Below, piece after piece: positions 320 through 48,860 of a stretch of DNA of 64,000 bases. Numbering within the stretch: position 1 is the stretch's first letter; each line of letters begins with the position of its first letter. The notes under the pieces were generated by a model. That model was not told the origin of the DNA. It saw only the letters and a list, made by a program, of their open reading frames with translations, and did not search any database. Origin of the DNA: a virus (Duplodnaviria; Caudoviricetes); the IMG/VR virus record IMGVR_UViG_2061766007_000017, positions 1,312 to 65,311 of that record. The stretch is one strand, 5' to 3'. A program made the position numbers and the translations under genes.

Positions 320-613
320 TTATTTGATAAACATCATCGCGATTGAACCAATCACGAAATAGGCGAGGTTGTGATACCATTTCGGTTCGTAGTCCAGGTC
401 CACCGATTCCGTTTTCTCCCGGTTGATGCCGAGGGAGTGCGCCCAGTTGTGCGCGGCCCATTCCCGCATGATGTTCATCTCGCTCCGCCGCCAAAGCCGA
501 CAGGACGGGTGCAGGGCGCGTATCTTGCACAACTCTGGGTAGAAGTCGGCCTTCTTGACGAGGTACGAGTCAATCAACTTGACCCGGTTGCCGAGGATGC
601 GGTACTCCATCAC
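320..613 (-). CDS. Hypothetical protein with C-terminal hydrophobic helix
   Basis: 97-aa ORF whose start overlaps the stop of the upstream gene; C-terminal LAYFVIGSIAMMFI. Confidence 0.65.
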   Translation of the reverse strand: MMEYRILGNRVKLIDSYLVKKADFYPELCKIRALHPSCRLWRRSEMNIMREWAAHNWAHSLGINREKTESVDLDYEPKWYHNLAYFVIGSIAMMFIK

Positions 614-999
614 GGAACGAGGAGTTCAAGGACATAGAAGATGCCCAGGCACACGGCGAAGAACAGGATGTAGATGCCGATGGTTTTCAGCACCTTCTTC
701 CAGGTTACGACCTCCTTGATGTAACGGAAGTCCTCCTTGATGCCTTCGATGAACCACTTGTCGCCGTACTTGGTCTTGTAGTCATCTTTCCAATGCCACG
801 CAACCTGGGCGATGGTGTAAACAAGGGTCTCCAGGATGGCCGTCACCCAGCACCAACCGAAGAAGGTCTTGAGCCAATGGCCGAACTGACTCATCCCGGC
901 CTCCACGGGTGCGAGGAAGCCGACGATGATGAACGCGATTGCGGAAAGGATTGCAGTCCGAGCAAACCACCGCTTCATAAATTTGATTCTTTCTTCCAT
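610..999 (-). CDS. Integral membrane protein (~3 TM, 129 aa); moron/superinfection-exclusion candidate
   Basis: Likely start ATG 999 (MEERIKF); three hydrophobic stretches; the track's longer N-terminus only translates the tandem repeat. Confidence 0.7.
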   Translation of the reverse strand: MEERIKFMKRWFARTAILSAIAFIIVGFLAPVEAGMSQFGHWLKTFFGWCWVTAILETLVYTIAQVAWHWKDDYKTKYGDKWFIEGIKEDFRYIKEVVTWKKVLKTIGIYILFFAVCLGIFYVLELLVP

Positions 1000-1037
1000 A
1001 TCTTTTCGTTTTGTGGGGGCCCGGAGGCCCCCGGTTT

Positions 1038-1107
1038 CGCAGTATTTTCGCAGTTCACCGCAGTATTTTCGCAGTTCACCGCAGTATTTTCGCAGTATTT
1101 CCGCAGT
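1038..1107. repeat. Seven CGCAGT hexamers at 10-11-bp spacing, next to a GC hairpin (GGGGGCCC-GGA-GGCCCCC, ~1015-1032)
   Basis: Copies start at 1038, 1049, 1059, 1070, 1080, 1091, 1102. Confidence 0.95.
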
Positions 1108-1122
1108 TCGTAAGTCAGTCAA

Positions 1123-1415: not shown

Positions 1416-4400
1416 CTAATCCTTGTAAGGTATTACCATCATTTCCCGTTTCACCATCATCTGCGTGACGGTCGCACCGACCCGCATCACCTTCACATTC
1501 CCGTTCAGTCGGTCAATCGCATAGACGCAGAAGGCATCCTGGGAGACTCCGACGCCACCCCTCGGAAGGTCGGACTGATTCGCCCAGGCCGGGTTGGAGG
1601 AATCGCCGTAAAGGGCGTTTCCGCAGGTAATGCAGAGGCAGAGTTGCTTGTTCTCCGAATTTTCATAGTACCCGATCCAGTCCTCGTGGCGATGTCCGCA
1701 TACGTAGCAGATGAACTCGGTCGTCTCATCCACCACGGAGAAGTCTGCCACCACCGAAACGGTCTGCGTGGTTACATCCGAATCTCCATTGTAGGTCGCT
1801 GAATGGTCTTCGTAGGTGAAGTTCACGGAAGTCCGGGAAATGAACGCATCCACCAGGAGTTCCACCACCCTCTTGTCCACATACGCACCGTCCGGCTCAT
1901 AGGATGCTCCGGTGTTCGGGACGGGCTGGCGGAACACATCATAAGGGGATTCGGCCACCACCTTGTCCTCCGGTGCATGGTAGGCGATTACGATGCCGTA
2001 GCCAGCCGGAGTGGAGAGAAGTGTTGCGATGAGCCAGTCTACCTGGGCCTGTCCTATTCTTCTGCGGTACACACCATCTTCATGCTGATTGAGGACAATC
2101 ACCCGGACTTTCTTGGCATCATAGTCCTTGTAGAAATAGCACTTGGTCGCAGGTGTCCCTGCAGATGCGAGGTATTCGTACTTTGTCGCAAGGTCGGAAA
2201 GGTTGTCGGCAAACAATGTGCTGCTCCCGGTGGGCAGGGATTCGTGGTTTCCGATGCAAGCGATTACATCCGTGTTGTGTTCGTTTGCGAAGTCAAAGAT
2301 GAACTGCGAGGCATCCCGTTTTTGATAGAGGACGGCATCGCCCGTTTCCATGATGAAGTCCACACCAAACTTGTCGCAGTATTCCAACAGGTTCTTCCAC
2401 CTCGGTGCATCCCCGTGCAGGTCGGTGATGTGGGCGAAAATGGGCATGGAATCCATCCCGTTCAATGCACCACCACCCGGAATCAACTCCCTGCGGAGTG
2501 CTTGCAGATTAATCTGCGTTGCCTCGTTCCGACCCACAACATTTTCATCCCGTTCATCGTAGTATTCAATGGCAAGTTTGCCGCTGTCTATGAGAGCCTG
2601 TATGTCGGATGCCAATATTGGTGCAACATAGGATGCAGAATTTGTGGTGTATGCTCGGAACACCGGACGGATGCATAATGCTGTATTTGGTAGGGTTATC
2701 TCGCCTCCGTCCACAAATGCCGCCGAACCACCCGCAAGCACTGAATGGTTTCCGTCGGAAGTTCCTACCCACCAATAGCCGCAAAGAATATAAGGCAAAC
2801 CATCTGGGATTCGGTGGCGAATCCTCATTCCAGGGAAAGGCACACAGATGTTGCTCTTGGTTGTGACTCTTAAGGGGTCATAGGTTGAGTTATGATTCAA
2901 ATGCCCAGATGAACTGGTATCGCAGTTAAGCAGACCACCCAAAGGCAGGGGTTTCCACTTGTTCTCATCTTCCAGGACTCCGCTTTCAATGAACTCCGTG
3001 TAGCCGGATTCGGAATCGTGTATAACGAAATCCTCCCCTCCAATTTTGACGGGTTTGTCATTTGCGACACCATCCACTTGCAGATGGAACGATGCACGGA
3101 TATATGCCGGGTTGTTGTTGCTGAAAGATATGGTTCGCGTTCCCGTGTATCCGTTTGAATTGTAATACACAACGAAATTCTTGTCGGCATCATACGATTC
3201 TATTCTGATGTTTGATGACCCGGCCCCGCCGAATTTCCAAACAATCTCCGTTCCGGGAGTGTATGGAATGAAATCCGTAGTCCCGCAACCATCAAGGTAC
3301 AAGATTTTCCCCTCGTTGATCCGCCCGTCCTCATAATAATTTTTCTTGCTACCGTAGATTGCCTTATCCACACCGATGTTGTTGCGGACGGTTTCCTGCT
3401 CGGTGTCGGTCAACTCCTGGGCGGTTTTGGTGAGGACTTCGGTGTCAATCTCTTCCTGTACCGCCTCAATCGCCTCCCGAACATCTGCGCCAAATCCTTC
3501 GTTCGGGACTTCCACATAGAAATTTCTTTCCGCAGATGCAAGACGGAAAACGAAATAGCAGTCCTCGGTTGCCGTGAAACTCCGTTTCTTTGTAGTGGAA
3601 CTATACTGCGTTCTCACAACATCGGAAACCGCATCACCGACTTCCGGAACATCTGCCGTTTTACCGGAAATAATCCACCCGGATGCGAGGTTGTGATGTA
3701 TCGTGATGGTCTTTCCTGCACTTACGGGAAGATACCAAAGCCGGAAACCCGTCTCTGCGACTATTTCATAAGGGAATGAACTTGTGATGCCTCTTCCGTT
3801 TACATTGGCAATATCCTCCGGCTGAATATTCCTTGTTTCATCAAACGTCAATTCGGCCTCTAACTGGCTGACTTTGGAGTTGGTCGCGTATTCTTCCAGG
3901 GCGACCGAAGTGGTGCCGATATGCACCCAGGAATAGGTGGAATCTCCGACCGTCACATACCTGTCGTAATTACCGGAAGTTCCAGTCGCGACAAGATAGA
4001 TCTTGCCGACGGTGGACGCGCTTGCGGCAAGGCTTCCGGTATAAGAATCGCTATCGTGGGTCACACTCACGCCAGCCGGGATGTTCGCGGCTACGGGAGT
4101 GGATTCCCCGTCCCAGGCTACGACGAACGCGCCGTTGCCGATGGTTTCGATGGAGATTCCCAGGTCTGCGATGTCGCCGTTGATGTCCTCAATATCCTCG
4201 TTGATAGCCGAGGCGATCCCGTCCACATAGGTCTTCACGGATTTCGGGGAGGACGTCTTGACGTCGGATGCCGCGTCCGCAGACACGTCCGTGGAAATGG
4301 TCGGCACGGTGGGAATGACACCACTTGCGAGGTCGGACGCGGGGATGCCGGTTCCTGGTTTCTGGTAGGCCGTGGCACCAGACGCGGCACCGCTTCGAAT

Positions 4401-4748
4401 CGTGGACAGGTCCTGGATGACGTCCTGCTTCCCGGAGACATCGGGTACGACCCCGCTGGCAAGGTCGCTGGCAGGGATACCGCCGGAGGGCTTGCTATAA
4501 GTGCCTGCGCCGATATTCGTCCGTGCCTGGGTTTTCTGCGAATCATTCAGCGACTGCGAGGTGTATTTAACGGCCTCCGGGTCGGAGCCTTCGCCGCTTC
4601 CGCTCTGCGCGGCCTCGTTGATGGCCGCGACGAGGTTGTTCTTCGCGGTGGTGTTCAAGTTGGAAAGGTTGCCAATGGAACTGCGTGCCACCTCGTCCTT
4701 GAGCGAGATGGGAACCCCACCGACAATGACCTGTTTAGCGTCACTCAT
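1416..4748 (-). CDS. Tail fibre/spike protein with C-terminal calcineurin-like metallophosphoesterase domain
   Basis: Fibre-type motifs (IGNLSNLNTTAKNNLVAAINE, YQKPGTGIPASDLA repeats, QARTNIG); C-terminal DLH, GDAV, GNHE, YHAP, GHRH metal-binding motifs. Confidence 0.75.
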   Translation of the reverse strand: MSDAKQVIVGGVPISLKDEVARSSIGNLSNLNTTAKNNLVAAINEAAQSGSGEGSDPEAVKYTSQSLNDSQKTQARTNIGAGTYSKPSGGIPASDLASGVVPDVSGKQDVIQDLSTIRSGAASGATAYQKPGTGIPASDLASGVIPTVPTISTDVSADAASDVKTSSPKSVKTYVDGIASAINEDIEDINGDIADLGISIETIGNGAFVVAWDGESTPVAANIPAGVSVTHDSDSYTGSLAASASTVGKIYLVATGTSGNYDRYVTVGDSTYSWVHIGTTSVALEEYATNSKVSQLEAELTFDETRNIQPEDIANVNGRGITSSFPYEIVAETGFRLWYLPVSAGKTITIHHNLASGWIISGKTADVPEVGDAVSDVVRTQYSSTTKKRSFTATEDCYFVFRLASAERNFYVEVPNEGFGADVREAIEAVQEEIDTEVLTKTAQELTDTEQETVRNNIGVDKAIYGSKKNYYEDGRINEGKILYLDGCGTTDFIPYTPGTEIVWKFGGAGSSNIRIESYDADKNFVVYYNSNGYTGTRTISFSNNNPAYIRASFHLQVDGVANDKPVKIGGEDFVIHDSESGYTEFIESGVLEDENKWKPLPLGGLLNCDTSSSGHLNHNSTYDPLRVTTKSNICVPFPGMRIRHRIPDGLPYILCGYWWVGTSDGNHSVLAGGSAAFVDGGEITLPNTALCIRPVFRAYTTNSASYVAPILASDIQALIDSGKLAIEYYDERDENVVGRNEATQINLQALRRELIPGGGALNGMDSMPIFAHITDLHGDAPRWKNLLEYCDKFGVDFIMETGDAVLYQKRDASQFIFDFANEHNTDVIACIGNHESLPTGSSTLFADNLSDLATKYEYLASAGTPATKCYFYKDYDAKKVRVIVLNQHEDGVYRRRIGQAQVDWLIATLLSTPAGYGIVIAYHAPEDKVVAESPYDVFRQPVPNTGASYEPDGAYVDKRVVELLVDAFISRTSVNFTYEDHSATYNGDSDVTTQTVSVVADFSVVDETTEFICYVCGHRHEDWIGYYENSENKQLCLCITCGNALYGDSSNPAWANQSDLPRGGVGVSQDAFCVYAIDRLNGNVKVMRVGATVTQMMVKREMMVIPYKD

Positions 4749-10294: not shown

Positions 10295-12031
10295 TTAAGC
10301 AGCGCGGATGACACCCTCGTAGTAAACCCAGCCGTCGAGATCGACGCTCCATTCGACGACATCTCCCTTGTAGAAGCCGTTCTGGTCGTCGTCGGCGGTG
10401 AGGTAATACTTCTTGGTTTTCGCATCGGCGGTAAGGGCACTGCCGGACGGCAGGGCGCTCACGGACTGGAACTCGGCCTGGATGCCGCCAGTGTTCTTCG
10501 CAGAGAGCGCAAGGCTGGACGGGCAGACAAGGATAGAGTTGTAGCCGTTCAGGGCCACGCAGTCGATACGGCACAGGTTGTGCTCCTTCGCCTCGCGAGC
10601 CTCGCCGGTCTTGGACATGTCACGGGTGGTCTTGTACTCGTTCTTCATGTAGTAACGGGTGGCGTTCTTGAGGTCGAGCACGACCATGTATTCATCATAA
10701 CCGAGGTCGTCAAGGGTGCGATCCCAAACGAACTCCAGCGTACCGAAGTTGTCGGAGTAGTTGCGCACACGGATACCGTAGTCGTTCACTTCGACCTTGC
10801 CGACATCCTTGTACTTGTTCGCGGAGTTCACCAGACGGATGAAACGCTTCATGGCCTTCTTGCCGCAGAACACGGTCGCATCCTCGGACATGGCGTTGTC
10901 CGTGAACATGAGGGTGGTGATAGCGAGCAGGTCGTCGTCCGTGAGGTCGAAGCCGTGGGTGTAGAGCATGTTCACCTGACGGAGCAGGCCGTTCTCTAAG
11001 TACACGCGCTCGCGACCGGTCTCCGGAACCATGATGTCCTTGCTGCCCATCGTGCCGTTCCAGTGGGAGCGGGCGCACTTGCGCTTGAAGTTGTAGGCCG
11101 CGTTGTCGAGAACCTGCTGGGTCTTGTGGGAAATCTTCTTGGTCTGCTCATCGAAGTAGTCCGTGATGACGACGGTCTCAATCTTCTTCTGCAGGAACTG
11201 GTCAAAGCCTTCCGGCAGGTAGGTTTCAGGGGCGACGCGCATCTGGGACTCGGAGCAGGCGGTAGCCATGACATAGAGTTCGGTGTTCGCAGCAAAGGTG
11301 ACGGCAGTGGCAGGATCGGATGTGGAATCCACAGGCGGGTTCACGACATAGAACTTGACCTTATCGCTCCCGTCCTTATGGTCGAGCACATACAGGATCA
11401 TCTCGCCATCGGAAATCTCGTTACCGGAATCGTCCTTCTTGAAGCCTTCAACGCCACGCACGGCCACGGTGGAGTATTCCATAAGGGCCTCGGCATTGTC
11501 GAAGTCAGAGACATCAAGGGTAAGGATACTGGTGCTCGCGGTGAATTTGCCGGAGGTGTTGGCACCTGCGGTGATGGTGAAGGACGAGCCGGTGTACACG
11601 GCCACGAGGTCGGTGGAGCCGCTGCGGTAATGCTTGTGGACGTAACTCTTGACCTTCTGCGGACGGCAACGACGCGCGACATAGGTCTCCAGCGGGAAGG
11701 CGAACTTCTTGAAGTTGTCCACACGGGCATCATAGTCTTCCGCTTCCAGGCCGGCATCAGTTACATCAGTTCCGGTAGCGGCATGGCCCTGGAGTTGGGT
11801 CTTTCCACCCTGCTCGTCGGTCTGGATGGTCTCATCCGCGGGACGGCCACCGGGGTTGGTGCTCGCATTGTAGGTTTCCAGATTATCCGAAGGATTGGCG
11901 TCGGGGGCCAGATCCACCGGATCGACTGCCATAGCAAAGCCGAGGTCTGCTCCCAGCAGAGCGGCGGCAATCACAAGCAGCGCTGACAGGACGCTCATCT
12001 TGTGGGTTTTCAGGAAATTGAAAGTTTTCAT
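10295..12031 (-). CDS. Major capsid protein (HK97-fold, 578 aa) with N-terminal hydrophobic leader
   Basis: Likely start ATG 12031 (MKTFNFLKTHKM); follows the scaffold gene and is followed by a terminator; C-terminal half resembles SU10/DUF5309-type capsids (GLLRQV, VFCG, FGTLEFVWD, VVLDL). Confidence 0.75.
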   Translation of the reverse strand: MKTFNFLKTHKMSVLSALLVIAAALLGADLGFAMAVDPVDLAPDANPSDNLETYNASTNPGGRPADETIQTDEQGGKTQLQGHAATGTDVTDAGLEAEDYDARVDNFKKFAFPLETYVARRCRPQKVKSYVHKHYRSGSTDLVAVYTGSSFTITAGANTSGKFTASTSILTLDVSDFDNAEALMEYSTVAVRGVEGFKKDDSGNEISDGEMILYVLDHKDGSDKVKFYVVNPPVDSTSDPATAVTFAANTELYVMATACSESQMRVAPETYLPEGFDQFLQKKIETVVITDYFDEQTKKISHKTQQVLDNAAYNFKRKCARSHWNGTMGSKDIMVPETGRERVYLENGLLRQVNMLYTHGFDLTDDDLLAITTLMFTDNAMSEDATVFCGKKAMKRFIRLVNSANKYKDVGKVEVNDYGIRVRNYSDNFGTLEFVWDRTLDDLGYDEYMVVLDLKNATRYYMKNEYKTTRDMSKTGEAREAKEHNLCRIDCVALNGYNSILVCPSSLALSAKNTGGIQAEFQSVSALPSGSALTADAKTKKYYLTADDDQNGFYKGDVVEWSVDLDGWVYYEGVIRAA

Positions 12032-12059: not shown

Positions 12060-12833
12060 TTATCCTCTGGACAGGCCGTCCCAGATGTCGTCCTCACGGG
12101 CAGGACGGGGTTGGCGTTCGCGCGTGGCAGCGCCCTGTCCTCCGACAGGTGCCGGGGGCATCCCGTTGGCCGCACTCCGGTCGCGTCGTGCTGCTGCGAT
12201 ACGGGCGTTTCGGCCAGCGACCTCTCCTTCCGCACGGGCCGCGGCGACATCGTTGTCGTGGTGGATGGCGTTGTAGGCAAGGTCGAAGTCCTCTGCGGCA
12301 TACTTGTTCTCCATGCCGTTGAATGTGATGGAAAGGAGACGGAGCATGACATCGCGCTTGTCCTCCAGGGACAGGCTCTTTCCGTTGCCCCATTCTTCCA
12401 GAGCGGAGAGGGATGCCTGCCAGTTACCTTCCGCTTCTGACTGAAGCCGGTCGTTCTCTGCCTTGCGTTCTCTCCAGCCTTCGAGTTGGGACTTGAACCG
12501 CGAGCGGCCTTCCTCGCTCATGCCGAGTTCGTCGCCAAAGGTCTCCACAAGCGCGGTTCGAGGGTCTCCTGTCTCAATCCAGCGGCTGATGAACTCCGCA
12601 GCGGACGGGTCGCTCATCAGAAGGTCGCGGAGACGATTGTTGTTCTCGTCGTATGCGGCCTGCCGGGTGGTGAAGTCCTCCAGCATCTCGTTGATTGCGT
12701 CGTCGAGATTGGCGACATTATCACCGGCCTCTGCACCGATGTCGGCGAAGGTGCGGTCGGGGAAACGCTCACGAGCGCGGGAAAGCAGGTTCTCGCGCGA
12801 GGACGGTTTTTTGTTCTTTTCGGATTTTGCCAT
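12060..12833 (-). CDS. Putative capsid scaffolding protein
   Basis: Charged helical/coiled-coil 257-aa protein directly upstream of the MCP. Confidence 0.6.
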   Translation of the reverse strand: MAKSEKNKKPSSRENLLSRARERFPDRTFADIGAEAGDNVANLDDAINEMLEDFTTRQAAYDENNNRLRDLLMSDPSAAEFISRWIETGDPRTALVETFGDELGMSEEGRSRFKSQLEGWRERKAENDRLQSEAEGNWQASLSALEEWGNGKSLSLEDKRDVMLRLLSITFNGMENKYAAEDFDLAYNAIHHDNDVAAARAEGEVAGRNARIAAARRDRSAANGMPPAPVGGQGAATRERQPRPAREDDIWDGLSRG

Positions 12834-12910: not shown

Positions 12911-12983
12911 CTCTACAATGCAGAATCATGTTTTTTGATTATATTTGTCAGTAGGGACTACGCCTTCTGATGCGTTTCTGCCG

Positions 12984-13394
12984 ATGCGAGACACGGAACT
13001 TAAACGGAAGAAGGCGGATGCCCTATACTCCGTCTATAAGAAAGGCTTGCAGGAGGGACGCTTCGCCTCGCTTTATGACGCGGGGAGATGCGTTTCCCGT
13101 TCACCTGCACCTTGCTTTTTCATATCCGCAAAGAGGGCTTCACTTCTTGTCGGCAGGATAACCGCCAGAATCTCGCTCATCAACCTGAATGATTCACAAC
13201 GGAAGATGGCGTGGCGGCTCTGGTTCAACTACCAGCACTACTTGGAGACACACCCAGGCAACACCCTGTCCCGTGAACGGGTGATGGAGATACTGGTGGA
13301 CGAGCCGGCCCCTGAGTTCTACATATCGACTGACGGAGCAAGACGGCTGCTTAAAGAGCGCATCGAGAGGACAAGGAGGGAGAAGGGATGGTGA
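12984..13394 (+). CDS. Hypothetical protein, first gene of the terminase operon (TerS or regulator candidate)
   Basis: Likely start ATG 12984; TATATTTG box at 12940-12947; internally duplicated PAP.F[FY]IS motif. Confidence 0.6.
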   Translation: MRDTELKRKKADALYSVYKKGLQEGRFASLYDAGRCVSRSPAPCFFISAKRASLLVGRITARISLINLNDSQRKMAWRLWFNYQHYLETHPGNTLSRERVMEILVDEPAPEFYISTDGARRLLKERIERTRREKGW

Positions 13395-13876
13395 GAGTCG
13401 TGCTCATAATCGTGCTGGTCGCATTGCAGGTCGTGTTCGGAATCCCTGGATTCATGCAGGGAGGGCCGTACTGGGAGCGTGCACTGCTTTACTCCTTTTT
13501 TCACGCGAACTGGTGGCATCTTGCCGTGAACGGGATTGCCGCTATCAGCATCTTTGCACCTTCGCGCAGAGGTAACATGCCGCATCTATTGTCTGGGTAC
13601 ATAATAGCCGTCCTTGTCTATCCACTTTCGTTCCGTCCGGTCATAGGATTCTCAAATGTCCTTTACGCAGTCCTCGGACTACGAACTCCGTCACTCAAAA
13701 GCGGATGGTGGAAAAGGCCGGAAGTGATAACCTTCCTTGTTGTCACCATCGCGCTCATCTTCGCGCCGCGTTTCAGCGCCACGACCCATATAGCGGCTTT
13801 TATCCTTGGAATGGCCGGCGCATCCGTCAAACGATTCCACAAAGACCTGACAAGTGATTTCAGACGCTATCTATAA
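13388..13876 (+). CDS. Rhomboid-family intramembrane serine protease (minimal)
   Basis: FFHANWWHLAVN (HxxxxHxxxN), GFSN (catalytic Ser motif), TTHIAAFILG (catalytic His); several TM helices. Confidence 0.8.
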   Translation: MVRVVLIIVLVALQVVFGIPGFMQGGPYWERALLYSFFHANWWHLAVNGIAAISIFAPSRRGNMPHLLSGYIIAVLVYPLSFRPVIGFSNVLYAVLGLRTPSLKSGWWKRPEVITFLVVTIALIFAPRFSATTHIAAFILGMAGASVKRFHKDLTSDFRRYL

Positions 13877-15965
13877 CGAGTTCATCGCGGAGAACGAAAA
13901 GCGATGGAAGCGGTTGCGGGCGGAGTACGACCCCGTAACCGGGGAAGGCATCGCCGAACTCACAGGGCTTAAGCGGGTAAGGTTTGAACTACCGGACTAT
14001 GCAATTCCTGTCCAGTGGGTTCCGGAATCCATGATGAAGAACAAACTCATCAGGGAGGTAAAGCGGGCCGGCAGCATCGAAAAGTACATCGAGACGAAGA
14101 AATGGAAGTACGGTGCACCGGACGCGCAGGAAATTGAAAGGAGGATTCGGAGAATCCGTCACAAGCACGACTTTGTGCACTGGGCATACTTCTGCATCTG
14201 GATCAAGCACAAGACCGCGAAGAAACGGGTCCGCTTTGTCCTAAACCTTCCCCAGTTGGAGGTACTGGCGATATGCGAACGGATGAGGGCGGTTGGAGTA
14301 CCCATATCCATCATCATACTGAAAGCGCGTCAGTGGGGCGGTTCAACTTTCTGCTTCTTCTATCAATGCTGGCTACTGTTCAAGTGGAACGAATTCCACG
14401 CTTTTGCCATAGCCGCGCATGTATCGTCGGCATCCGAGACTATCCTGGCCATGCTCAAAAGGAGCATCGAGGACTATCCGGCATGGGATTTGGGACTTCC
14501 GGACGGTACGGAACTGCGTCTTGTGGCGACCGACAGCGCCGGACACGAATACGCCATAAGAGACCAAAACAACAAGCAGGTTCTGGAAGGTCATATCTTC
14601 ATCGGTTCAGCGGAGAAGCCGAACACCCTGCGTTCCAAGGATATTGCCGGCGCGCACTATTCAGAGGTCGGACTATGGCCGAACACTCCGCAGAAACAGG
14701 CGGACGACATTATCGCGGACATCGAGGGCGGCATGACGGACGACGAGGATTCCATGCGCGTCATGGAATCTACGGCCAAGTCCTCGGACGACTATTTCGC
14801 AGACACATGGCGATCGTGCGACGGTGGGAGGGGTGGCTATGAACAGGTATTCGTACCGTCCAGGGACATCATCTTCGACAACAGGAAGATTGACAACCTG
14901 CGCGAGTTCGTGGACTGGCTGGTGTCGCACAGGGACGAGGACATCCCGAACGGTAAATGGAAGGATACCGGCAAATACTATTGGTGGCTCTGGGAACTCG
15001 GTTCGACGCTGGAGCATATCAACTGGTATCGTTACCGTCGTTTGCGTCTATCATTTGCCAAGATGTGCAACGAGGCTCCCGAAACACCGGAACAGGCTTT
15101 CTTCACCGCTGGTAACCATGTGTTCGACCCGTTCCTGGTTCACGAAAAGTTAATGAAATGCCGTGAACCAGTATTCGTGGGCGACCTTGTTGCAAACGGA
15201 GAGAAAGGCGCGGAGGCTCTGGAGGACATCCGCTTCATACCAAACTCGACAGGAAACCTTCGTATCTGGGAGAAACCAGACGACTCGCCAGTGTCGAACC
15301 GCTATATCGTCATTCTTGACCCGCGCCGCGGCGCAAGCGAAGGGGCAGACCCGGCCTGCATTACGGTCATAGACCGTCTTCTGATGATGGAGGAATTTGG
15401 ATTGAACGGAAAGCCGGGCGTAGTCGCGGAGATGAACTACAAGGCAGACCCGGATCTGCAAGCCTACGATGCGATGCGTGTCGCGAAGTGGTACAATGAC
15501 GCGCTGCTCGTCATTGAATCAAACACGATGGAGTCCATGAACAAGGAGCGCAACAACGGCATCGATTCGTTCGAGTACATCATGGACATCGTATCTGGCC
15601 TGTACCGCAATCTCTACATGCGCCGCACCAAGGAGGAAAATGTAAAGGAGGGGACGAACGGGAAATGGGGATTCCACACGAACCCCAGTACGAAACCGAA
15701 GATTATCAACTTCATGAAGGTATGCCTCCGAGACGACCTGTGGGACGAGCCTTCACAACTCTGCTGCTCGCAGATGGCATCATACATGGAAGACCACGGA
15801 AAGACCGATGCCGAACACGGAAAGCATGATGATGTCGTCATGTCCAGGGCAATCGGACTTTGGGTCTGCTACAAGGAGATGGAGCCGCCGGCATGGATAG
15901 TGCCCGCACAACCGCAGCAAGATTCAATCATTCACGGGGACAACCTCGGACTGACAAGATTATAA
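13854..15965 (+). CDS. terL: Terminase large subunit
   Basis: ILKARQWGGST (Walker A), AHYSEVGLW (Walker B), MESTA, RNase H-like IVILDP...ESN...HDDVVM. Confidence 0.92.
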   Translation: MISDAIYNEFIAENEKRWKRLRAEYDPVTGEGIAELTGLKRVRFELPDYAIPVQWVPESMMKNKLIREVKRAGSIEKYIETKKWKYGAPDAQEIERRIRRIRHKHDFVHWAYFCIWIKHKTAKKRVRFVLNLPQLEVLAICERMRAVGVPISIIILKARQWGGSTFCFFYQCWLLFKWNEFHAFAIAAHVSSASETILAMLKRSIEDYPAWDLGLPDGTELRLVATDSAGHEYAIRDQNNKQVLEGHIFIGSAEKPNTLRSKDIAGAHYSEVGLWPNTPQKQADDIIADIEGGMTDDEDSMRVMESTAKSSDDYFADTWRSCDGGRGGYEQVFVPSRDIIFDNRKIDNLREFVDWLVSHRDEDIPNGKWKDTGKYYWWLWELGSTLEHINWYRYRRLRLSFAKMCNEAPETPEQAFFTAGNHVFDPFLVHEKLMKCREPVFVGDLVANGEKGAEALEDIRFIPNSTGNLRIWEKPDDSPVSNRYIVILDPRRGASEGADPACITVIDRLLMMEEFGLNGKPGVVAEMNYKADPDLQAYDAMRVAKWYNDALLVIESNTMESMNKERNNGIDSFEYIMDIVSGLYRNLYMRRTKEENVKEGTNGKWGFHTNPSTKPKIINFMKVCLRDDLWDEPSQLCCSQMASYMEDHGKTDAEHGKHDDVVMSRAIGLWVCYKEMEPPAWIVPAQPQQDSIIHGDNLGLTRL

Positions 15966-16383: not shown

Positions 16384-18384
16384 TTACATCGGTGCGGCAG
16401 GAACCGCCGGGGCACCATACTGAGGAACCGCTTCCGGCGCGGACCCCGTTGGCATCCCGGCCTGTTCCGCTGCTTCCATTTCGGCCTGTCGTGCCTGCCG
16501 TTTCTGGAGGATCTTGTCCACATACGGCTTGCTGCTGGCCTCCAGGTATTCCTCGAATGTGATGAAACCGGCTTGGAGGAAAGTAAGGAGGTCTTGTTCC
16601 TGCATCTCGCGGAAAACGGGAGTGTCCGCACTTTCCTTGATGCGCAGGTCGTATTCGAGGTCTGCTATCTCGTTCAGGTTGATAGCGGACATGTCGTAGA
16701 GAGTGTCGATGCGTCCGGCAATCTTCTCGAACCTGTCCGTATCGTAGAAACTGACGATGTTCTTCATCTTCTTGTTGAGCACGGCCAGTACAAAGTTGTG
16801 GAACTGCTCCATAAGGGCAGCGATAGGCGTGGACGCATTCGCGCTCATCTGGGCATACAGCGTTCCCGATGTGCCAGAGTTCGGCGTTTTGCCCTGCAGG
16901 GCACCGTTCACAGGAGAACCAGCGTCCATGAGGTGCTGGTATGTCGCCAGCAAGCCTCCGACATCGAAAGTCTGAGCAACTCCGTGGAACTGCTTCGGCA
17001 GAAGTTCTTCCTCGCCTGGCCCTATGTCCACATAAACAAGGTCGTCAATGCTTGCCCATGCGCGCGCAAATTCCTTCTCGGTGATTTTCCCTCCGAGTAG
17101 CCTTCGCGGTACGACCGTAACGCCCTTCGCCTGCGAACGGACGAGCCAGTCGTGAAGGACGACCGCCCTGTTCATGGCGATATTGTGGTCGATTGCATCG
17201 TTCATGTAGCCGACAATCCTGCCGTCGATGTATGAGAAGATGCAGAAGTTGAACGGATGCGTGCGGTCTGCGTAAGGGGATTCGCCTTCCCAAAGTATAG
17301 TTCCGTCAGGTGCCAGGAAACGGCAGTACCAGTAAGTGTCGATGAAGAATCCGTTACGCTCCACATCGTCTTTGCCATATCCGTCTCCGATGATGTAAGG
17401 GGCCTCGTCCTCGTCCCAACCGGATGCGACCGCAAGTTTCTTGCGGCGCTCGTTCTCGGACTTTACCTGCTTGCGGTATTCATAATCATCAGCGTCGATG
17501 ATTTCCTCATAGCCGACATTGGTATCGTGCAGACGGATTTTCGCCCGTGTCTCTTTCGTCCAGACCTCGCATACATAGCACTTGGTAGGGTCGTTGGAAC
17601 GCATGAACGATATGCCGCCGTCCTCAAACTTGTCCTCCGGCCCTTCAGGGCTTTCAAGACGGAACGGGCTGGACTGGTCTCCGTAAATTTCCTTCAAGAT
17701 TCCGTAATCGGATGGCTTGCGGACAAACTGGCCGCAGATTTCCTCAAACGCGCCGTAATAGAACCTGCCAACGATTGACAGGTCCCAGAAACGGGGATCT
17801 ACACCACCGCCATCGAAGAAAACAAGGTTTGGGTTGATGTATTGCGTCCAGGAATCGAGCCTTCTATTCGGGCCATGTGTAGCATCGTAGGATTCATAGG
17901 AGACCGCCAGACCGCCCAGGTTCAGGTCCTTAATCCACTTGATGTAGAGTTCGGGCATCACATTCTTGTCGCAGTTGGCCTGTATTGCGTTTGTCACGAC
18001 CTCGCCATACTGCTGCTCGTCGCGGTCGATAGCATGGCATACCGGCTCGTTCCTTTCCTTCACCATCACGCCAGCGATCGTGTCCACGCGGTTCTTTATC
18101 TGGTTGGTCTGAATGACGACATTACCGGTCTGCATGAGATACTGGCGGTAGGTCATGGTCTTGCCGTTCACGGTAATCGGGTCTGCCCACTGGTCTCCGT
18201 CATAGAACCTGTGTCCACGGGCACGCTGCTGGCGGAATGAATCGAGATTCATCCAGACGGCCTCACAGCGTTTTAGCAAGTCCACATCCTTGTCCTTGAC
18301 GCGGATTTCCTTCTTACGCACCCTTACGGAATCCATATCCGCGGGTGTAGATTTCCTTTTTATGAGACGGTCTGCCTTGAACAT
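16384..18384 (-). CDS. Portal protein (P22-like size)
   Basis: ~666 aa; N-terminal R..R..FYDGDQW...N.I...V motif typical of podovirus portals; likely start ATG 18384 (alternative GTG 18399). Confidence 0.85.
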   Translation of the reverse strand: MFKADRLIKRKSTPADMDSVRVRKKEIRVKDKDVDLLKRCEAVWMNLDSFRQQRARGHRFYDGDQWADPITVNGKTMTYRQYLMQTGNVVIQTNQIKNRVDTIAGVMVKERNEPVCHAIDRDEQQYGEVVTNAIQANCDKNVMPELYIKWIKDLNLGGLAVSYESYDATHGPNRRLDSWTQYINPNLVFFDGGGVDPRFWDLSIVGRFYYGAFEEICGQFVRKPSDYGILKEIYGDQSSPFRLESPEGPEDKFEDGGISFMRSNDPTKCYVCEVWTKETRAKIRLHDTNVGYEEIIDADDYEYRKQVKSENERRKKLAVASGWDEDEAPYIIGDGYGKDDVERNGFFIDTYWYCRFLAPDGTILWEGESPYADRTHPFNFCIFSYIDGRIVGYMNDAIDHNIAMNRAVVLHDWLVRSQAKGVTVVPRRLLGGKITEKEFARAWASIDDLVYVDIGPGEEELLPKQFHGVAQTFDVGGLLATYQHLMDAGSPVNGALQGKTPNSGTSGTLYAQMSANASTPIAALMEQFHNFVLAVLNKKMKNIVSFYDTDRFEKIAGRIDTLYDMSAINLNEIADLEYDLRIKESADTPVFREMQEQDLLTFLQAGFITFEEYLEASSKPYVDKILQKRQARQAEMEAAEQAGMPTGSAPEAVPQYGAPAVPAAPM

Positions 18385-18408
18385 ACGGAAAAAGTGCACT
18401 TTATGTTG

Positions 18409-18467: not shown

Positions 18468-18971
18468 CTAAACTGGTAACACTTTTCCCAGCATGGCGAG
18501 CAGCGGCTTCCGGAAGATCCATGCGAGGCATGCGACGAGACCGCCGAGAAGCCACCAGAAAGCCCGTAGGCGGACCTTTTGCCACCAAGACAAGGGTTTC
18601 TCCACCTTGACTTCATGCGTGATGATATGAGCCCTTTCCGTAGTGTTCGTAACGGTGGTGGTCAAGATTCGCTCCGGCCACTTGAAATCATACGCAATCG
18701 GTGTTCGCTTGTTCTCCAAAGTGTGATGAAGAAATCCGTCATTCCCGACGAAGGCGACAGATTCGGCGACCGATGTGGACAACCGTGATGTGTCTCCCAC
18801 TTGGACGATAACCTGGTCGGATTCCAAAGGGATAGGGACATAGAGGGTCGTATCCCGCCAAACGAGACTATCCCTCACCTCAGTTTGCGTGATGGTGATG
18901 ATGCGTTCAGTAATCTTTGGGGAGCAAGACGCCAGGCTCGCAGCCAGCAGAAATATGATTATCTTCTTCAT
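18468..18971 (-). CDS. Unimolecular spanin-like lipoprotein
   Basis: N-terminal lipobox LASC, beta-rich middle, C-terminal TM (FWWLLGGLVACLAWIF); last gene of the lysis cassette. Confidence 0.65.
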   Translation of the reverse strand: MKKIIIFLLAASLASCSPKITERIITITQTEVRDSLVWRDTTLYVPIPLESDQVIVQVGDTSRLSTSVAESVAFVGNDGFLHHTLENKRTPIAYDFKWPERILTTTVTNTTERAHIITHEVKVEKPLSWWQKVRLRAFWWLLGGLVACLAWIFRKPLLAMLGKVLPV

Positions 18972-18976
18972 AGGAT

Positions 18977-19008
18977 AAAAGACGGGGGCATTTCACAACG
19001 CCCCCGCC
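18977..19008 (-). terminator. Intrinsic terminator-like hairpin
   Basis: GGCGGGGGC...GCCCCCGTC followed by TTTT on the minus strand. Confidence 0.55.
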
Positions 19009-19052
19009 ACACAAAAAACAACCCTTATCAATATGAGAAACTAAAAGGATTC

Positions 19053-19433
19053 TCACTGAATCATGTTTTTTCTCCACCTCACATTGCTGCCGGAGACGAT
19101 CTCGGTTTCATTGGCATATACAATCATGTCAATGAACGACTCACCGTCATCCTCGTAACTGAGGAAAACAACTCTTTCGGAAAGCGCCTTGCGCACATCG
19201 TCGAAGTCGGTGCCGTCAGAAGGAGTAAAAGCACCAGTATTGACCGTCCCATTGACAATCAACGGAGCAGCCGCCACGCCGCCGGCATCCAGCATGTTTT
19301 CGACTGCGGCTTCGAGCAAATTCAGTTTTTCCTCCAGGGTCACCCAATTGGAGTCGCGGATGCCCTTTTCGTGTGTGACCGGATAGCGCTTGCGACCCCG
19401 GCGATCCTTGATGTACTTAATCTTGTCTTGCAT
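19053..19433 (-). CDS. Hypothetical protein (126 aa) with N-terminus shared with the tail protein at 4771..5301
   Basis: Likely start ATG 19433 (MQDKIKYIKDRRG). Confidence 0.7.
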   Translation of the reverse strand: MQDKIKYIKDRRGRKRYPVTHEKGIRDSNWVTLEEKLNLLEAAVENMLDAGGVAAAPLIVNGTVNTGAFTPSDGTDFDDVRKALSERVVFLSYEDDGESFIDMIVYANETEIVSGSNVRWRKNMIQ

Positions 19434-19441
19434 ATTCTTTC

Positions 19442-20068
19442 CTATTTGTTTTTGATATAGTCCTCTATCCCCTGCGTTATGACATGGATGCACGACCCAA
19501 TACCCCTGTCTGAGAGAAGGAAACGGACATCGAGTTTGTTGTCCTGGAAGAAGTTCTCCACAAGGACAGCCGGACATAGGGTATTCGTAAGGAGATAGAA
19601 GTTTTCCTCAAAGTCTCGCTCCAGATACTTATCCCATTTCTTTCGGACGGTGAGCGGACTCAAAAACTCTTTTTTCGCGACCTGATAAATGGCCTCTGCG
19701 AGATAGTCTGATTTCGTAACGCCCGGACTGGTATAGATGGACCAACCCCTTGCGTTCATCCACCGGCTCCCGTCTCCAGCCGCGTTGTTATGGACTGACA
19801 CGAGCAGCACATTGTCCTTGCCGTATTTCCGGCAGAAGTCGTTCGCCCGTTTTGTGCGGACTGAAAGCGGGATGTCATTTTCCTCCGGGACAAGGAGCCA
19901 CGCCTGTAATCCACGCGCCTGGAGGACATCGCAACAAGCCTGCGAGACCTTGCGCGTCCACGAATACTCGCGGAAATACAGGGTCGAACCAGTCTGCCCT
20001 TTCAGTGCATCCGGCGAACCCTTGCCGCGCGTTTCCACGCCATGCCCGTTGTCGATGAGGACGATCAT
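19442..20068 (-). CDS. Endolysin, N-acetylmuramoyl-L-alanine amidase (Amidase_3)
   Basis: LIDNGHG, RE, LVSVHNNA, PAVLVENFF Zn-amidase motifs. Confidence 0.92.
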   Translation of the reverse strand: MIVLIDNGHGVETRGKGSPDALKGQTGSTLYFREYSWTRKVSQACCDVLQARGLQAWLLVPEENDIPLSVRTKRANDFCRKYGKDNVLLVSVHNNAAGDGSRWMNARGWSIYTSPGVTKSDYLAEAIYQVAKKEFLSPLTVRKKWDKYLERDFEENFYLLTNTLCPAVLVENFFQDNKLDVRFLLSDRGIGSCIHVITQGIEDYIKNK

Positions 20069-47085: not shown

Positions 47086-48327
47086 TTATAGGCTGTTGAT
47101 TAAGTCCTGCGTAGATTTCTTATTGCCGGTCGCGTAACCGGGCGTGTTCGTATCGGGTGACGCGGTTTCTGGTCTTTCCACATAGTTTTCGGGCCGTGTT
47201 CCGTACTGGCTCAAAACGGAACGACGCTCCGGGACCTGCGTAGCAAAGTCGTAGATGATGCTCTTTCGCTCGATGTCGGTCGCTGCCCTCCGGTACGCCT
47301 TCTGGAAGTCCTCGTTGTCCTTGACCGATGCGTAGGACTGTTCCACGAACTTGTCATATTCCGTGGCCGTCATATAGACCGGCGTTAGTTGTCCGTTCGC
47401 ATCGTAATAGAACAGGGTATTCCGGCTTGCACCACTTCCCCCACCAGAGCCAGCACGGAGAGCCGCCTGCGTGACAGGAGAGTTCGGATCGATTTCGTAC
47501 TCTCCCTTGTCGTTCTTCCGCAGTCCGTATCGTGCCGCGGTGATTGCCGCGTTCTCCCGTCTTGCCGCGGCACTTTCGCGCCGAGCCGCGGCCTGTTCTT
47601 CGAGTTGGCGTTCGTGAAGGTCCACATTGATTCCCGTAACGACCCCCTGCGTCCTGGCGGCACCGGCCTCCTTCGCGGTCTGCATCTTGACATTCATGGG
47701 AGCCGTAGCGGTCTGGTAGCCGACCTGTGCGGACTGCGCACCATGCTGATAGGCTTGGTCGGCCTGTCTGGTTGCCATGTTCAGCGCGGTTCCGGCATCC
47801 CCCATGCGTAGTTGAATAAGTTGCTGCTGAAGGGCGCGCTGACGGTCGCGGAGATTGTCGAACCTCGCCCGGTTCTGCTTCCAGTTCTCGTCGGCCTTTT
47901 TCATCCAGTCCTGCGAATAGGAGTGATACTGCTGGCTGACCGCATTATGACCGCCCACGGCAATCATGTTCGCTATGGATGCGGCCAGTTCGGTCGCACC
48001 AGTCCAACGGGCGGCATTCTGCTCGTTGTTGTATTGCTCGATTGCTTCCTGCTGGGCTTGGTCGGCTCTGGCCTTCTCCCCTGCGATGATGTCGGCGAAC
48101 TGGGTGTAACCCTCGTCCATCCGCTGCTTGTATATCTGCTGGGCCTGGTTGTAGGCTTCAGTCCTGGCTTGGTTGGCCGCGTCGAGGCTCTGCTGGTACT
48201 GCTGGCCTGCAGTAGTGAGGCCGGTCACAACTTCCTGCCCGGTCTGCTCCAGTTGTTGTGCCTGCTGCTCGTATGCCTCCTGCGCCTGTTGCGCTCTTGT
48301 TTTCTTCTTGTCCGGCATGGCTGTCAA
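47086..48327 (-). CDS. Putative internal virion (ejection) protein
   Basis: 413 aa, Q/A-rich helical, weakly hydrophobic patch; between the small ejection gene and the giant protein. Confidence 0.6.
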   Translation of the reverse strand: MTAMPDKKKTRAQQAQEAYEQQAQQLEQTGQEVVTGLTTAGQQYQQSLDAANQARTEAYNQAQQIYKQRMDEGYTQFADIIAGEKARADQAQQEAIEQYNNEQNAARWTGATELAASIANMIAVGGHNAVSQQYHSYSQDWMKKADENWKQNRARFDNLRDRQRALQQQLIQLRMGDAGTALNMATRQADQAYQHGAQSAQVGYQTATAPMNVKMQTAKEAGAARTQGVVTGINVDLHERQLEEQAAARRESAAARRENAAITAARYGLRKNDKGEYEIDPNSPVTQAALRAGSGGGSGASRNTLFYYDANGQLTPVYMTATEYDKFVEQSYASVKDNEDFQKAYRRAATDIERKSIIYDFATQVPERRSVLSQYGTRPENYVERPETASPDTNTPGYATGNKKSTQDLINSL

Positions 48328-48860
48328 GCGTCAGTTTTCTCTATTTCGTTCTTTTTCTTTGTAAGGCCGACATCCTGCCCGACGAGATTGATTCCTGCAT
48401 TGACGGCCTGACTTGCGGCCTGTGCGGTCTGCGCGGCTTGTTGCTGGTAAGATGCGGCCTGTTGCTGATTGAGAGCCGCATCCTGGGCGCGGTACTGCTG
48501 CTCAATCCTGTCCTTGTAACTGGAAGCCTGGGACGCGATGTCGGTCATGGTGTCCGACAGGGACTTGTTCGCGGCCTGTTGCTGGGCGACAAGTGCCCCA
48601 TCCGTGCCTCCTGCAACCACATTGGTCGCGCGGGCGCGGTCGTACTGCTCTTTCAGGAGTTCACGCTGACGGGTGATTGCCGCCTGTACATCTGAACGCT
48701 GGGTATAGTCCCTTGCCATCTGGATCTCATACCAACGGCGGTTATCATTCCGCTGCTGGTCTATGAGTTGTCTTGCCCTGTTATTGGCGACGGATGACTT
48801 GACTCCCCCGTAGATTGCAGAGCCGAGAGCAGCGGCTGCGCCTATCAATGCTGTTACCAT
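48324..48860 (-). CDS. Putative ejection protein (P22 gp7-like)
   Basis: N-terminal ALIGAAAALGSAIYGG followed by Q/A-rich coil. Confidence 0.65.
   Translation of the reverse strand: MVTALIGAAAALGSAIYGGVKSSVANNRARQLIDQQRNDNRRWYEIQMARDYTQRSDVQAAITRQRELLKEQYDRARATNVVAGGTDGALVAQQQAANKSLSDTMTDIASQASSYKDRIEQQYRAQDAALNQQQAASYQQQAAQTAQAASQAVNAGINLVGQDVGLTKKKNEIEKTDA

Follow-up and report, generated by a model that had tools for sequence, protein, structure and literature searches.

Does the major capsid protein of this tailed phage open with a genuine membrane-targeting signal, and if so, what, if anything, would remove it? Tailed-phage heads are the textbook example of cytoplasmic assembly; we know of no HK97-fold capsid protein with a membrane-targeting signal, and of no phage that uses a rhomboid. 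The window analysed here, a stretch of 64,000 nucleotides, comes from a complete 65-kb record of a rumen Bacteroidales phage. Its positions 11930–12031 (minus strand) are codons 1–34 of the capsid open reading frame (ORF), which runs from 12031 to 10295, and the initial annotation had read them as a signal-peptide-like leader on a capsid protein, with a neighboring rhomboid as one possible processing enzyme.

The capsid protein and its head module

The identity of the protein was borne out by profile and fold. PF17236 (SU10_MCP, formerly DUF5309) matched capsid residues 310–480 (42.2 bits against a cut-off of 24.1, E = 9.5e-11), and a Foldseek search with the AF2 model (pLDDT 66) retrieved the VP1 capsid 9in6 (1.6e-17) and crAss001 (6e-11), as well as SU10 and HK97 itself. 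A sequence search with the capsid family profile found no solved relative in the PDB. Profile matches and synteny placed the gene in a head module, alongside genes for scaffold, portal and terminase (Table 1). The position of the scaffold-like gene is identical across all related loci, and the 149-aa product is taken, by position alone, to be the small terminase subunit. Profile scans found no second capsid protein in this phage, leaving the product of 10295–12031 as the only one found. Pfam or PHROGs scans of 32 window ORFs for a standard prohead protease (HK97 gp4, T4 gp21 or ClpP/S49 type) gave no match, in a search that small or very divergent proteases could escape. Three cultured Bacteroides phages, BF1-TP2, BS-TP4 and BKO1-TP3, have the same module. 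The 'YajC' label on gp5 of BS-TP4, a possible hint at Sec machinery, had no Pfam support and was set aside.

Table 1. Positions of the capsid gene, the parts of its leader and the neighboring head genes in the window.
Feature	Position	Strand	Basis
Major capsid protein, 578 aa	10295..12031	(-)	HK97 fold; Pfam SU10_MCP/DUF5309
Leader n-region, codons 1–11, MKTFNFLKTHK	11999..12031	(-)	Net positive; dN/dS 0.27
Leader h-region, codons 12–28, MSVLSALLVIAAALLGA	11948..11998	(-)	Hydropathy 2.40; dN/dS 0.27
Leader c-region, codons 29–35, DLGFAMA, predicted junction after A35	11927..11947	(-)	dN/dS 0.12
Acidic flexible linker, codons 36–105, leading to N-arm motif DEQGGKTQLQG...	11717..11926	(-)	Composition; low pLDDT
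Scaffold-like protein, 257 aa, immediately upstream of capsid gene	12060..12833	(-)	phrog_22323 1.4e-29
149-aa protein, small-terminase-subunit position, overlapping rhomboid start	12945..13394	(+)	Conserved synteny
Phage mini-rhomboid, 162 aa, six predicted TM segments	13388..13876	(+)	Pfam PF01694
Large terminase subunit, overlapping rhomboid gene end	13854..15965	(+)	phrog_2 'terminase large subunit' 1.3e-13
Portal protein (P22-like)	16384..18399	(-)	Pfam PF16510 3.9e-23

A three-part, signal-like leader under purifying selection

The first 11 residues contain three lysines and one histidine (K2, K8, H10 and K11) and no acidic residue. They are followed by the only transmembrane (TM)-like stretch of the capsid protein, residues 12–28 (MSVLSALLVIAAALLGA), with a mean Kyte-Doolittle hydropathy of 2.40; the next best 17-residue window scored 1.08, and only 11 of 20,000 shuffles of the protein gave such a hydrophobic window within the first 45 residues. 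Among the 48 larger window ORFs, only the capsid protein and the rhomboid have an N-terminal TM-like opening, and the capsid protein is the sole non-rhomboid ORF of at least 70 aa with an N-terminal TM segment. The c-region has Ala at both −3 and −1 (A33-M34-A35), with M34 and A35 invariant in the close-family alignment (A1), and comparison of homologues showed a conserved G27-A28-D29-(P/L)-G31 at the helix end. Composition, hydropathy and the A-x-A motif agree with the basic n-region, ~17-aa core and putative cleavage site described initially. The acidic linker was recovered as well: residues 36–105 hold 16 Asp/Glu against three Lys/Arg, Pro/Gly/Asn/Thr/Ser/Gln make up 43% of them, and AF2 pLDDT is mostly low in this region (<50 over much of 27–111), ahead of a conserved N-arm motif. 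The layout is that of a Sec-type signal, with a 17-residue h-region at the long end for a signal peptide.

Other classes of N-terminal segment fitted less well. A lipoprotein signal was rejected, as the leader has no Cys, and where some homologues have one, at position 30, the preceding G-A-D does not make a lipobox. A prepilin-type leader has its cleavage site and hydrophobic stretch in the opposite order. The leader is too short for an HK97-like delta domain and is not amphipathic, and a separate scaffold protein is present.

The start codon, previously left between 12031 and 11998, could be placed at 12031, because most homologues have an in-frame stop just upstream of M1 and some have Leu at residue 12. 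Initiation at M12 (11998) was rejected on that same replacement and on the constraint seen over codons 2–11. A gene-calling artefact is likewise at odds with the stops just before M1 and with protein-level selection on the leader, where dN/dS was 0.25 compared to 0.23 in the capsid core, at dS ~0.9. Purifying selection on the leader thus matches that on the capsid core, and within the leader the c-region has the lowest dN/dS (Table 1).

The leader is the usual state in its capsid family

A leader was present in every full-length homologue at 65–96% identity among the matches listed. Further out, 95 of 116 distant family representatives, down to ~22% identity, had a leader of the same build, namely a basic start, a hydrophobic core and a small-residue junction. 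The n-region was net positive in 99% of 90 leaders, and the 40 residues after the junction had a mean net charge of −5 in the 51 of these with a locatable MA junction; some distant leaders have no Met at the junction. The expectation that such a leader would be an exception therefore does not hold within this capsid family, and on this distribution the leader is old there. The leaderless proteins begin M-A-E, aligned to the ...M-A-E/D junction of the sister group, with stops a few codons upstream. Scans of viral contigs yielded no relatives of two leaderless representatives, P0134 and P0168.

These comparisons bear on whether the leader is removed at all. It might instead be retained, to anchor the protein in the membrane while heads assemble, or to pack as a hydrophobic N-terminal helix within the shell or onto the scaffold. 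The AF2 model has helices at residues 2–9 and 14–25, and conservation of the h-region is similar to that of the core, both of which would suit such a role. However, functional leaderless relatives start exactly at the junction, and hence the shell can do without the leader. The strongest constraint (dN/dS 0.12) lies in the small-residue c-region, as is typical of a processing site, and a soluble capsid could hardly accommodate several hundred such strongly hydrophobic helices per shell. Retention would also leave the link to a protease, described below, unexplained, and we consider it improbable.

A phage mini-rhomboid accompanies the leader

The identification of the neighboring gene as a rhomboid was upheld. 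Its product matched PF01694 (29.2 bits against a cut-off of 22.6; E = 4.7e-8 in a whole-record search), and the catalytic residues are intact: H39, H44, N48, G87-x-S89 and H134 (HxxxxHxxxN plus the catalytic Ser/His) are invariant in 10–29 phage homologues. These residues, together with six hydrophobic segments read off the sequence, are those of MEROPS family S54. By manual count, ~12 Lys/Arg lie on the presumed cytoplasmic loops and three on the others, indicating an N-in, C-in protein; the active site would therefore face the periplasm. The genomes of the bacterial hosts encode one to three rhomboids of their own.

The phyletic pattern ties this gene to the leader. A rhomboid was found in 17 of 18 leader-bearing phage records but in none of 23 leaderless ones (records mostly 90–100% complete), and a whole-record PF01694 search gave 13/13 versus 0/23; the leader status of four records from a third phage group was verified individually. 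At the level of loci, a rhomboid is encoded at each of the 21 IMG/VR loci from this phage group that include upstream flank and at 46 of 47 loci of the leader-bearing sister group, and is absent at 27/27 loci of the leaderless clade. A second, independent leaderless lineage has none over ~55–60 kb. In the third group, both the leader-capsid gene and the rhomboid gene are kept ~10–20 kb apart, and adjacency is therefore not the cause of the pairing. Conversely, every rhomboid-bearing phage with a readable capsid gene has the leader. The junction itself follows the same pattern, with MA or MxA in 50 of 51 distinct leaders at rhomboid loci compared to four of 20 with no rhomboid in reach (a set from which locus L006, whose stretch has no upstream flank, was left out).

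The reverse does not always hold. A leader occurs without a rhomboid in one phage (G037, locus L173) whose record is complete, with terminal repeats, and in ~19 small capsid modules of Bacteroidales chromosomes, where the 10 kb to each side contain no rhomboid. Some chromosomal modules consist of a scaffold and a leader-bearing capsid protein with no terminase or portal nearby. Across the genomes compared, the coupling is one-way: a phage rhomboid occurs only where there is a leader, and a leader sometimes occurs without the rhomboid. In elements of the latter kind, a host enzyme is presumably able to handle the leader; the hosts have their own rhomboids. Few independent events lie behind the pattern: two leader losses and at least two rhomboid absences. 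A literature search found no paper describing the pair, nothing relevant on phage rhomboids, signal-peptide capsid proteins, DUF5309 or BF1-TP2, and no paper on the cultured relatives BF1-TP2, BS-TP4 and BKO1-TP3.

A possible membrane step in head assembly

The leader-rhomboid pattern points to a putative, so far undescribed membrane step in the building of tailed-phage heads. We propose, with a little short of even confidence, that the leader targets the membrane as a cleavable propeptide and is processed by the phage's own rhomboid. The capsid protein would be made as a precursor in which residues 1–35 act as a Sec-type leader, to be removed at, or one or two residues from, the conserved A33-M34-A35|V36, and the mature N-terminus would then match the natural start of the leaderless relatives. 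The processing enzyme would most likely be the mini-rhomboid, co-transcribed with the terminase genes and standing in for a prohead protease in this phage group. Before or during head assembly, capsid subunits might thus be transiently tethered to the membrane. We infer cleavage, its site, the rhomboid as the enzyme and the transient tether from sequence comparison.

The main difficulty is topological. Known bacterial rhomboid substrates are N-out and are cut N-terminal to a TM helix; TatA, itself N-out, is cut at IATA|A, which resembles FAMA|V of the capsid leader. In its residues, the leader resembles a TatA-type substrate, with a small P1 (the invariant A35) and helix-destabilizing residues in G27-A28-D29-(P/L)-G31. 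By the positive-inside rule, however, its n-region (+3) and negative downstream flank predict an N-in helix with the acidic side out, and its conserved junction motif lies on the C-terminal side of that helix, so that the charge prediction departs from the TatA-type orientation (N-out, motif N-terminal to the helix). The predicted topology argues against a standard rhomboid cut. It would also place the capsid domain across the membrane from where it is needed: cleavage at the periplasmic face would create the new N-terminus outside, whereas heads have to be built in the cytoplasm, next to DNA and terminase. A leader oriented N-out would suit the rhomboid and cytoplasmic assembly alike, but contradicts a charge difference of ~8 units, and the helix would stay on the protein after a standard cut. 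Our broader suggestion is more tentative, and we hold it as possible yet somewhat doubtful: that a large clade of Bacteroidota tailed phages would route its capsid protein via the inner membrane, tethered there and released by a phage rhomboid that cuts an N-in helix on its C-terminal side. To our knowledge, this geometry has not been described for any rhomboid.

Alternatively, the leader might be removed by a host enzyme, either signal peptidase I acting at A-M-A|V or one of the host's own rhomboids, with the phage rhomboid as an accessory. Host genomes do encode rhomboids, the leader is built in the classic n/h/c manner, with Ala residues at −3 and −1, its N-in orientation is mismatched to a standard rhomboid substrate, and the leader-bearing elements lacking a phage rhomboid imply that the phage enzyme is not strictly needed. 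Yet cleavage by signal peptidase I takes place during export, on the periplasmic side, and would again leave the capsid protein outside the cytoplasm. Nor would a host enzyme explain why the phage rhomboid never occurs without a leader-bearing capsid protein, or why MA/MxA junctions go with it (50/51 versus 4/20). The accessory role might be to rid the membrane, late in infection, of the tens of thousands of leader peptides left there, or to cut some other target, but a freed peptide would be N-in as well and would suit a rhomboid no better. We judge this reading, host removal with an accessory phage rhomboid, unlikely, if by no means negligible.

For the bulk of the capsid protein, the topology problem would disappear altogether if most subunits were translated from an internal start at Met34, leaderless and cytoplasmic, with the full-length protein as a minor membrane isoform and perhaps the rhomboid target. 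M34 is invariant in the close family, Met stands at or beside the junction in 50 of 51 leaders at rhomboid loci, and the leaderless relatives start at the same Met. Against this, M34 is preceded by GC-rich coding bases (GGAGCAGACCTCGGCTTTGCT-ATG), in contrast to the AT-rich stretch before M1, and the junction Met is absent from some distant leaders. We see only a slim chance that two starts are used.

Finally, the capsid protein, or part of its pool, might truly be exported across the inner membrane for a role outside the head. Taken by itself, the leader looks like a cleavable Sec signal, the acidic region behind it favors translocation, and the chromosomal scaffold and leader-capsid modules without nearby terminase or portal could be read in the same way. 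But the gene belongs to a complete head module, in a 65-kb phage that is itself complete, and encodes the only capsid protein found, and DNA packaging requires cytoplasmic ATP, terminase and DNA. We regard export as very improbable.

Comparison with known systems

Processing by the phage rhomboid can be set beside several known systems. HK97 gp5, whose delta domain is cut by gp4, and T4 gp23, cut by gp21, undergo prohead-protease processing. They resemble the capsid leader, as interpreted here, in having a dispensable N-terminal segment on an HK97-fold protein and a phage protease gene in the head module. Their propeptides are, however, long, soluble and scaffold-like and are cut inside the prohead by a soluble protease, whereas here the segment is a signal-like hydrophobic leader of 35 residues, the scaffold is separate and the candidate protease is an integral membrane protein. 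M13 procoat (gene VIII protein), which is cut by host leader peptidase, is likewise a major coat protein with an N-terminal signal that inserts into the inner membrane before assembly, as is proposed for our capsid protein. Unlike a terminase-filled HK97-fold shell, though, the M13 coat is a 50-residue helix, its virion is extruded through the membrane and no phage-encoded protease takes part.

Among rhomboids, Providencia stuartii AarA, as outlined by Fritsch et al. (2012, PMC3712462), cuts a short N-terminal extension off membrane-inserted pre-TatA, which becomes active for large-complex assembly. Removal of an N-terminal extension (proposed for the capsid protein) and a small residue before the cut are common to both. 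The TatA extension precedes the TM helix, whereas the capsid junction comes after a helix predicted to be N-in; TatA remains in the membrane, whereas the capsid protein must leave it; and AarA is a host housekeeping enzyme, in contrast to the capsid-linked mini-rhomboid, which is a phage gene.

A closer parallel in the kind of evidence is the GlyGly-CTERM sorting signal, described in outline as a Gly-rich motif, a TM helix and a basic cluster, and as occurring in step with a dedicated subfamily of rhomboids (Haft and Varghese, 2011, PMC3237569). On the same account, its targets often adjoin a rhombosortase gene and the pairing comes from phylogenetic profiling (PMC3237569), so that both there and here enzyme and target were matched by phyletic profile. 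GlyGly-CTERM, as outlined there, is C-terminal and sits on exported proteins, whereas the capsid leader is N-terminal on a protein with no other TM segment. The leader is an N-terminal mirror image (basic cluster, TM helix, Gly/Ala motif), and the chain would consequently cross the membrane the opposite way. Rhombosortases are, besides, a dedicated subfamily, to which the phage mini-rhomboids need not belong.

[quoted passage not shown] HCV core and our capsid protein would share a membrane segment on a viral capsid protein and, as proposed here, intramembrane proteolysis. HCV is nevertheless a eukaryotic RNA virus, its anchor lies C-terminal to core, and the enzyme is a host aspartyl protease that needs type II segments rather than a virus-encoded serine rhomboid.

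If the phage rhomboid does process the leader, head assembly in very abundant gut and rumen phages would include a membrane step and a new protease class, and for the first time an intramembrane protease would be seen to take part in the morphogenesis of a tailed phage. The pair would also provide a rare natural enzyme and substrate for the study of bacterial rhomboids, and the enzyme may turn out to cut its segment in an orientation so far considered off-limits. BF1-TP2, BS-TP4 and BKO1-TP3, being in culture, make the leader-rhomboid pairing directly testable. For annotation, signal predictors will label such capsid proteins as secreted or membrane proteins. We also noted that the matching terminase is annotated as a tail spike in two GenBank records.

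The leader-bearing protein is the major capsid protein

The IMG/VR phage record (65,311 bp, direct terminal repeats, rated 100% complete) is covered almost entirely by the window, which encodes an integrase and a CI-like repressor, indicating that the phage is temperate. Close relatives occur in Bacteroidales genomes from rumen and gut, integrated as prophages. The product of the capsid gene, P0001, matched Pfam SU10_MCP over the cut-off, and its AF2 model (pLDDT 66) resembled solved HK97-fold capsids, VP1 being the best match (1.6e-17), followed by crAss001 and SU10. These matches uphold the initial annotation of P0001 as a major capsid protein with an HK97 fold. P22-like portal and large terminase genes adjoin the capsid region; no standard prohead protease was found by Pfam or PHROGs among the 32 window ORFs scanned.

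Coordinates of features in the window and, where a locus is named, in loci of other records
Feature	Position	Strand	Remarks
Scaffold-like gene	12060-12833	-	upstream of capsid gene, 28 bases between
Capsid gene	ORF start 12031	-	product P0001, 578 aa
Phage rhomboid	13388-13876	+	162 aa; Pfam Rhomboid match over cut-off
Membrane protein	610-1122	-	170 aa
Tail-fibre-like protein	1416-4748	-	1,110 aa
Membrane protein	18801-19460	+	219 aa
Amidase_3 endolysin	19442-20068	-	
Giant ORF	23245-47073	-	7,942 aa
T7 gp14-like internal virion protein gene	48324-48860		giant 7,942-aa ORF downstream of it
Mini-module, locus L289	6525-15947		Bacteroidales genome
Mini-module, locus L287	7899-11933		Bacteroidales genome
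Terminase gene labelled tail spike, locus L029	3984-6011		
Terminase gene labelled tail spike, locus L309	2045-4141		

The leader is translated and constrained like the shell domain

Three Lys and one His, but no acidic side chain, occur among residues 1-11 of P0001 (n-region); residues 12-28 (h-region) form its sole TM-like stretch (mean hydropathy 2.40 vs 1.08 for the next best window), and residues 29-35 (c-region) read DLGFAMA. Past this point, residues 36-105 hold 16 Asp/Glu vs 3 Lys/Arg, and model confidence is mostly low. A comparable hydrophobic window arose within the first 45 residues in only 11 of 20,000 shuffles of P0001. The basic start, hydrophobic core and acidic linker described previously were therefore all recovered at the coordinates given.

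Either 12031 or 11998 had been considered as the true start, and our results place it at 12031. In most homologues an in-frame stop lies no more than 11 codons upstream of M1, and M1 is preceded by AT-rich DNA. Several homologues have Leu at residue 12, hence the alternative start at 11998 is absent there. Across 18 coding sequences, dN/dS was 0.27 for the n-region, 0.27 for the h-region and 0.12 for the c-region; the value for the whole leader (0.25) was close to that for the capsid core (0.23), with a leader synonymous divergence of ~0.9. Together with the upstream stops, these values indicate that the leader is translated from 12031 under constraint equal to that on the shell domain. Such constraint is unusual for a generic signal peptide, and suggests a specific partner.

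The leader was kept in all full-length homologues listed at 65-96% identity. In a distant-homologue search performed without a word index, which reached down to ~22% identity, a leader of the same build was present in 95 of 116 full-length representatives. The n-region was net positive in 99% of 90 complete leaders (mean +2.6), and net charge averaged -5 over the 40 residues past the MA junction (51 leaders with the junction located). Leaderless proteins were a minority of the full-length representatives. The main leaderless clade is a single derived clade on the tree. In the DNA of 80 of its IMG/VR loci, the start reads M-A-E and follows a stop by a few codons; in alignment it coincides with the M-A-E/D junction of the leader-bearing sister group. 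A functional capsid protein can thus start right at the junction, and of the evidence at hand this start best indicates where the mature N-terminus lies.

A reduced rhomboid accompanies the leader in one direction only

The phage rhomboid gene overlaps both of its neighbors, a 149-aa gene at the small-terminase-subunit position and the large terminase gene. H39, H44, N48, G87, S89 and H134 are invariant among its phage homologues. Loops 2 and 4 and the two ends of the chain together hold about 12 Lys/Arg, and loops 1, 3 and 5 hold 3, a distribution that predicts the standard N-in, C-in topology, in which the active site opens toward the periplasm. In each of the MAGs G042-G045, which come from hosts of related prophages, one or two chromosomal rhomboids score strongly (75-107 bits). 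The prophage mini-rhomboid scores weakly in the same MAGs (22-37 bits), and the phage enzyme is a distinct, much reduced rhomboid subfamily rather than a recent copy of a host gene.

In the phage group of the window, the rhomboid sits at the same position in 21/21 loci with upstream flank. Two cultured Bacteroides phages, BS-TP4 and BF1-TP2 (whose capsid protein is 21% identical), have it there as well. When viral contigs were searched with the rhomboid as query, every capsid gene within reach carried a leader. A leader is also present in a third phage group, where the rhomboid lies next to portal and terminase and ~10-20 kb from the capsid gene. PF01694 was found in 13/13 leader-bearing whole records vs 0/23 leaderless ones, most of the latter being 90-100% complete. 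The leader-bearing sister group has a rhomboid at 46/47 loci, and the main leaderless clade lacks it at 27/27. Bacteroidales genomes also contain another leaderless lineage, unrelated to the first, and no phage-type rhomboid lies within ~55-60 kb there.

The converse does not hold. The sister group includes a complete phage, G037 (IMG/VR record 3300045988_175236, locus L173; 59,119 bp with direct terminal repeats), whose 472-aa capsid protein, shorter C-terminally, bears a leader. A rhomboid is found nowhere in this record, and a small-terminase-like gene overlaps the large terminase gene directly: G037 is a natural 'rhomboid knockout'. Moreover, 401 sampled Bacteroidales genomes gave 29 capsid-gene matches, about 19 of them small modules. 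In these chromosomal mini-modules (L280-L299) a scaffold and a leader-bearing capsid protein are joined by two head-associated genes; terminase, portal and rhomboid are all absent from the 10 kb to either side. The three examined in full have housekeeping genes on both sides, and at least one mini-module has an apparent integrase (judged by eye), possible lysis genes and a long fibre-like gene. The mini-modules resemble satellites that form capsids, or capsid modules that have been domesticated. The rule therefore runs one way: a phage rhomboid entails a leader and no leader entails no rhomboid, but leaders without a phage rhomboid exist.

The junction was MA or MxA in 50 of 51 distinct leaders at rhomboid loci vs 4 of 20 where no rhomboid was in reach, the latter usually reading (L/I/V)-A-A; because most of these 20 belong to one clade, the contrast is suggestive only.

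In the deposited records of BF1-TP2 (GenBank PQ571263.1, locus L029) and BS-TP4 (PQ571277.1, locus L309), the gene syntenic with the large terminase gene of the window is labelled 'tail spike protein', and structure-based notes within the same records indicate a terminase. A 'YajC' label on BS-TP4 gp5 received no support from Pfam. The capsid proteins are labelled DUF5309 or DUF2951.

A proposed role for the rhomboid and a geometric objection

The initial annotation had offered host signal peptidase I or the neighboring rhomboid as the cleaving enzyme and had left the topology open. Our results support that interpretation in part: the leader is real, old, under selection and tied to the phage rhomboid, and mechanism and topology are still predictions from sequence. 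The one-way pattern is read most simply if the rhomboid is present because of the leader. The leader would be a cleavable membrane-targeting propeptide, cut by the phage rhomboid at or near the bond between A35 and V36. Hosts encode 1-3 rhomboids of their own, and in elements that lack the phage gene the cut would fall to host enzymes or, perhaps, to a helper phage. In their behavior the leaderless relatives match P22-type phages, which do without a protease.

The main objection to a rhomboid cut is geometric, as the leader is predicted to lie N-in and the rhomboid active site to be periplasmic. Known substrates of bacterial rhomboids are N-out segments that are cut N-terminally to the helix, and after a cut at the periplasmic face the capsid domain would be stranded on the wrong membrane side. 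We can only speculate on three ways out. A conserved turn, G-A-D-(P/L)-G, might fold the FAMA-V strand back into the active site; the cut might be made on an early hairpin intermediate, after which the acidic linker slides back; or translation of the bulk of the protein might start at M34, with only a minor isoform at the membrane.

Five systems come nearest as working analogies: AarA and TatA (PMC3712462); the GlyGly-CTERM/rhombosortase pairing, which was inferred from co-distribution (PMC3237569), as is the pairing proposed here, of which it is a mirror image; hepatitis C virus core protein, which signal peptide peptidase releases (PMC7366577); the cleavage of capsid propeptides by prohead proteases; and the filamentous-phage procoat. 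In none of these five does an HK97-fold capsid protein occur together with a signal-like leader and an intramembrane protease encoded by the virus, and in the literature we found no paper on an HK97-fold capsid leader paired with such a protease.

Other genes of the window

The 170-aa membrane protein has two TM-like segments, and the 219-aa membrane protein, which has a C-terminal TM segment, is encoded next to the Amidase_3 endolysin. Both are lysis-partner candidates in a window without an annotated holin. Close to the C-terminal end of the tail-fibre-like protein, residues 771-927 form a calcineurin-like metallophosphoesterase domain (Pfam PF00149, 7.9e-9). The halves of the giant ORF matched Zeta toxin, ddrB-ParB, SNF2/helicase C, MuF_C, LPD38 and LPD23 domains, and its product is a giant 'polyvalent protein', a kind known from phages and conjugative elements. 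Since the ORF lies downstream of the T7 gp14-like internal virion protein gene, this protein may be ejected.
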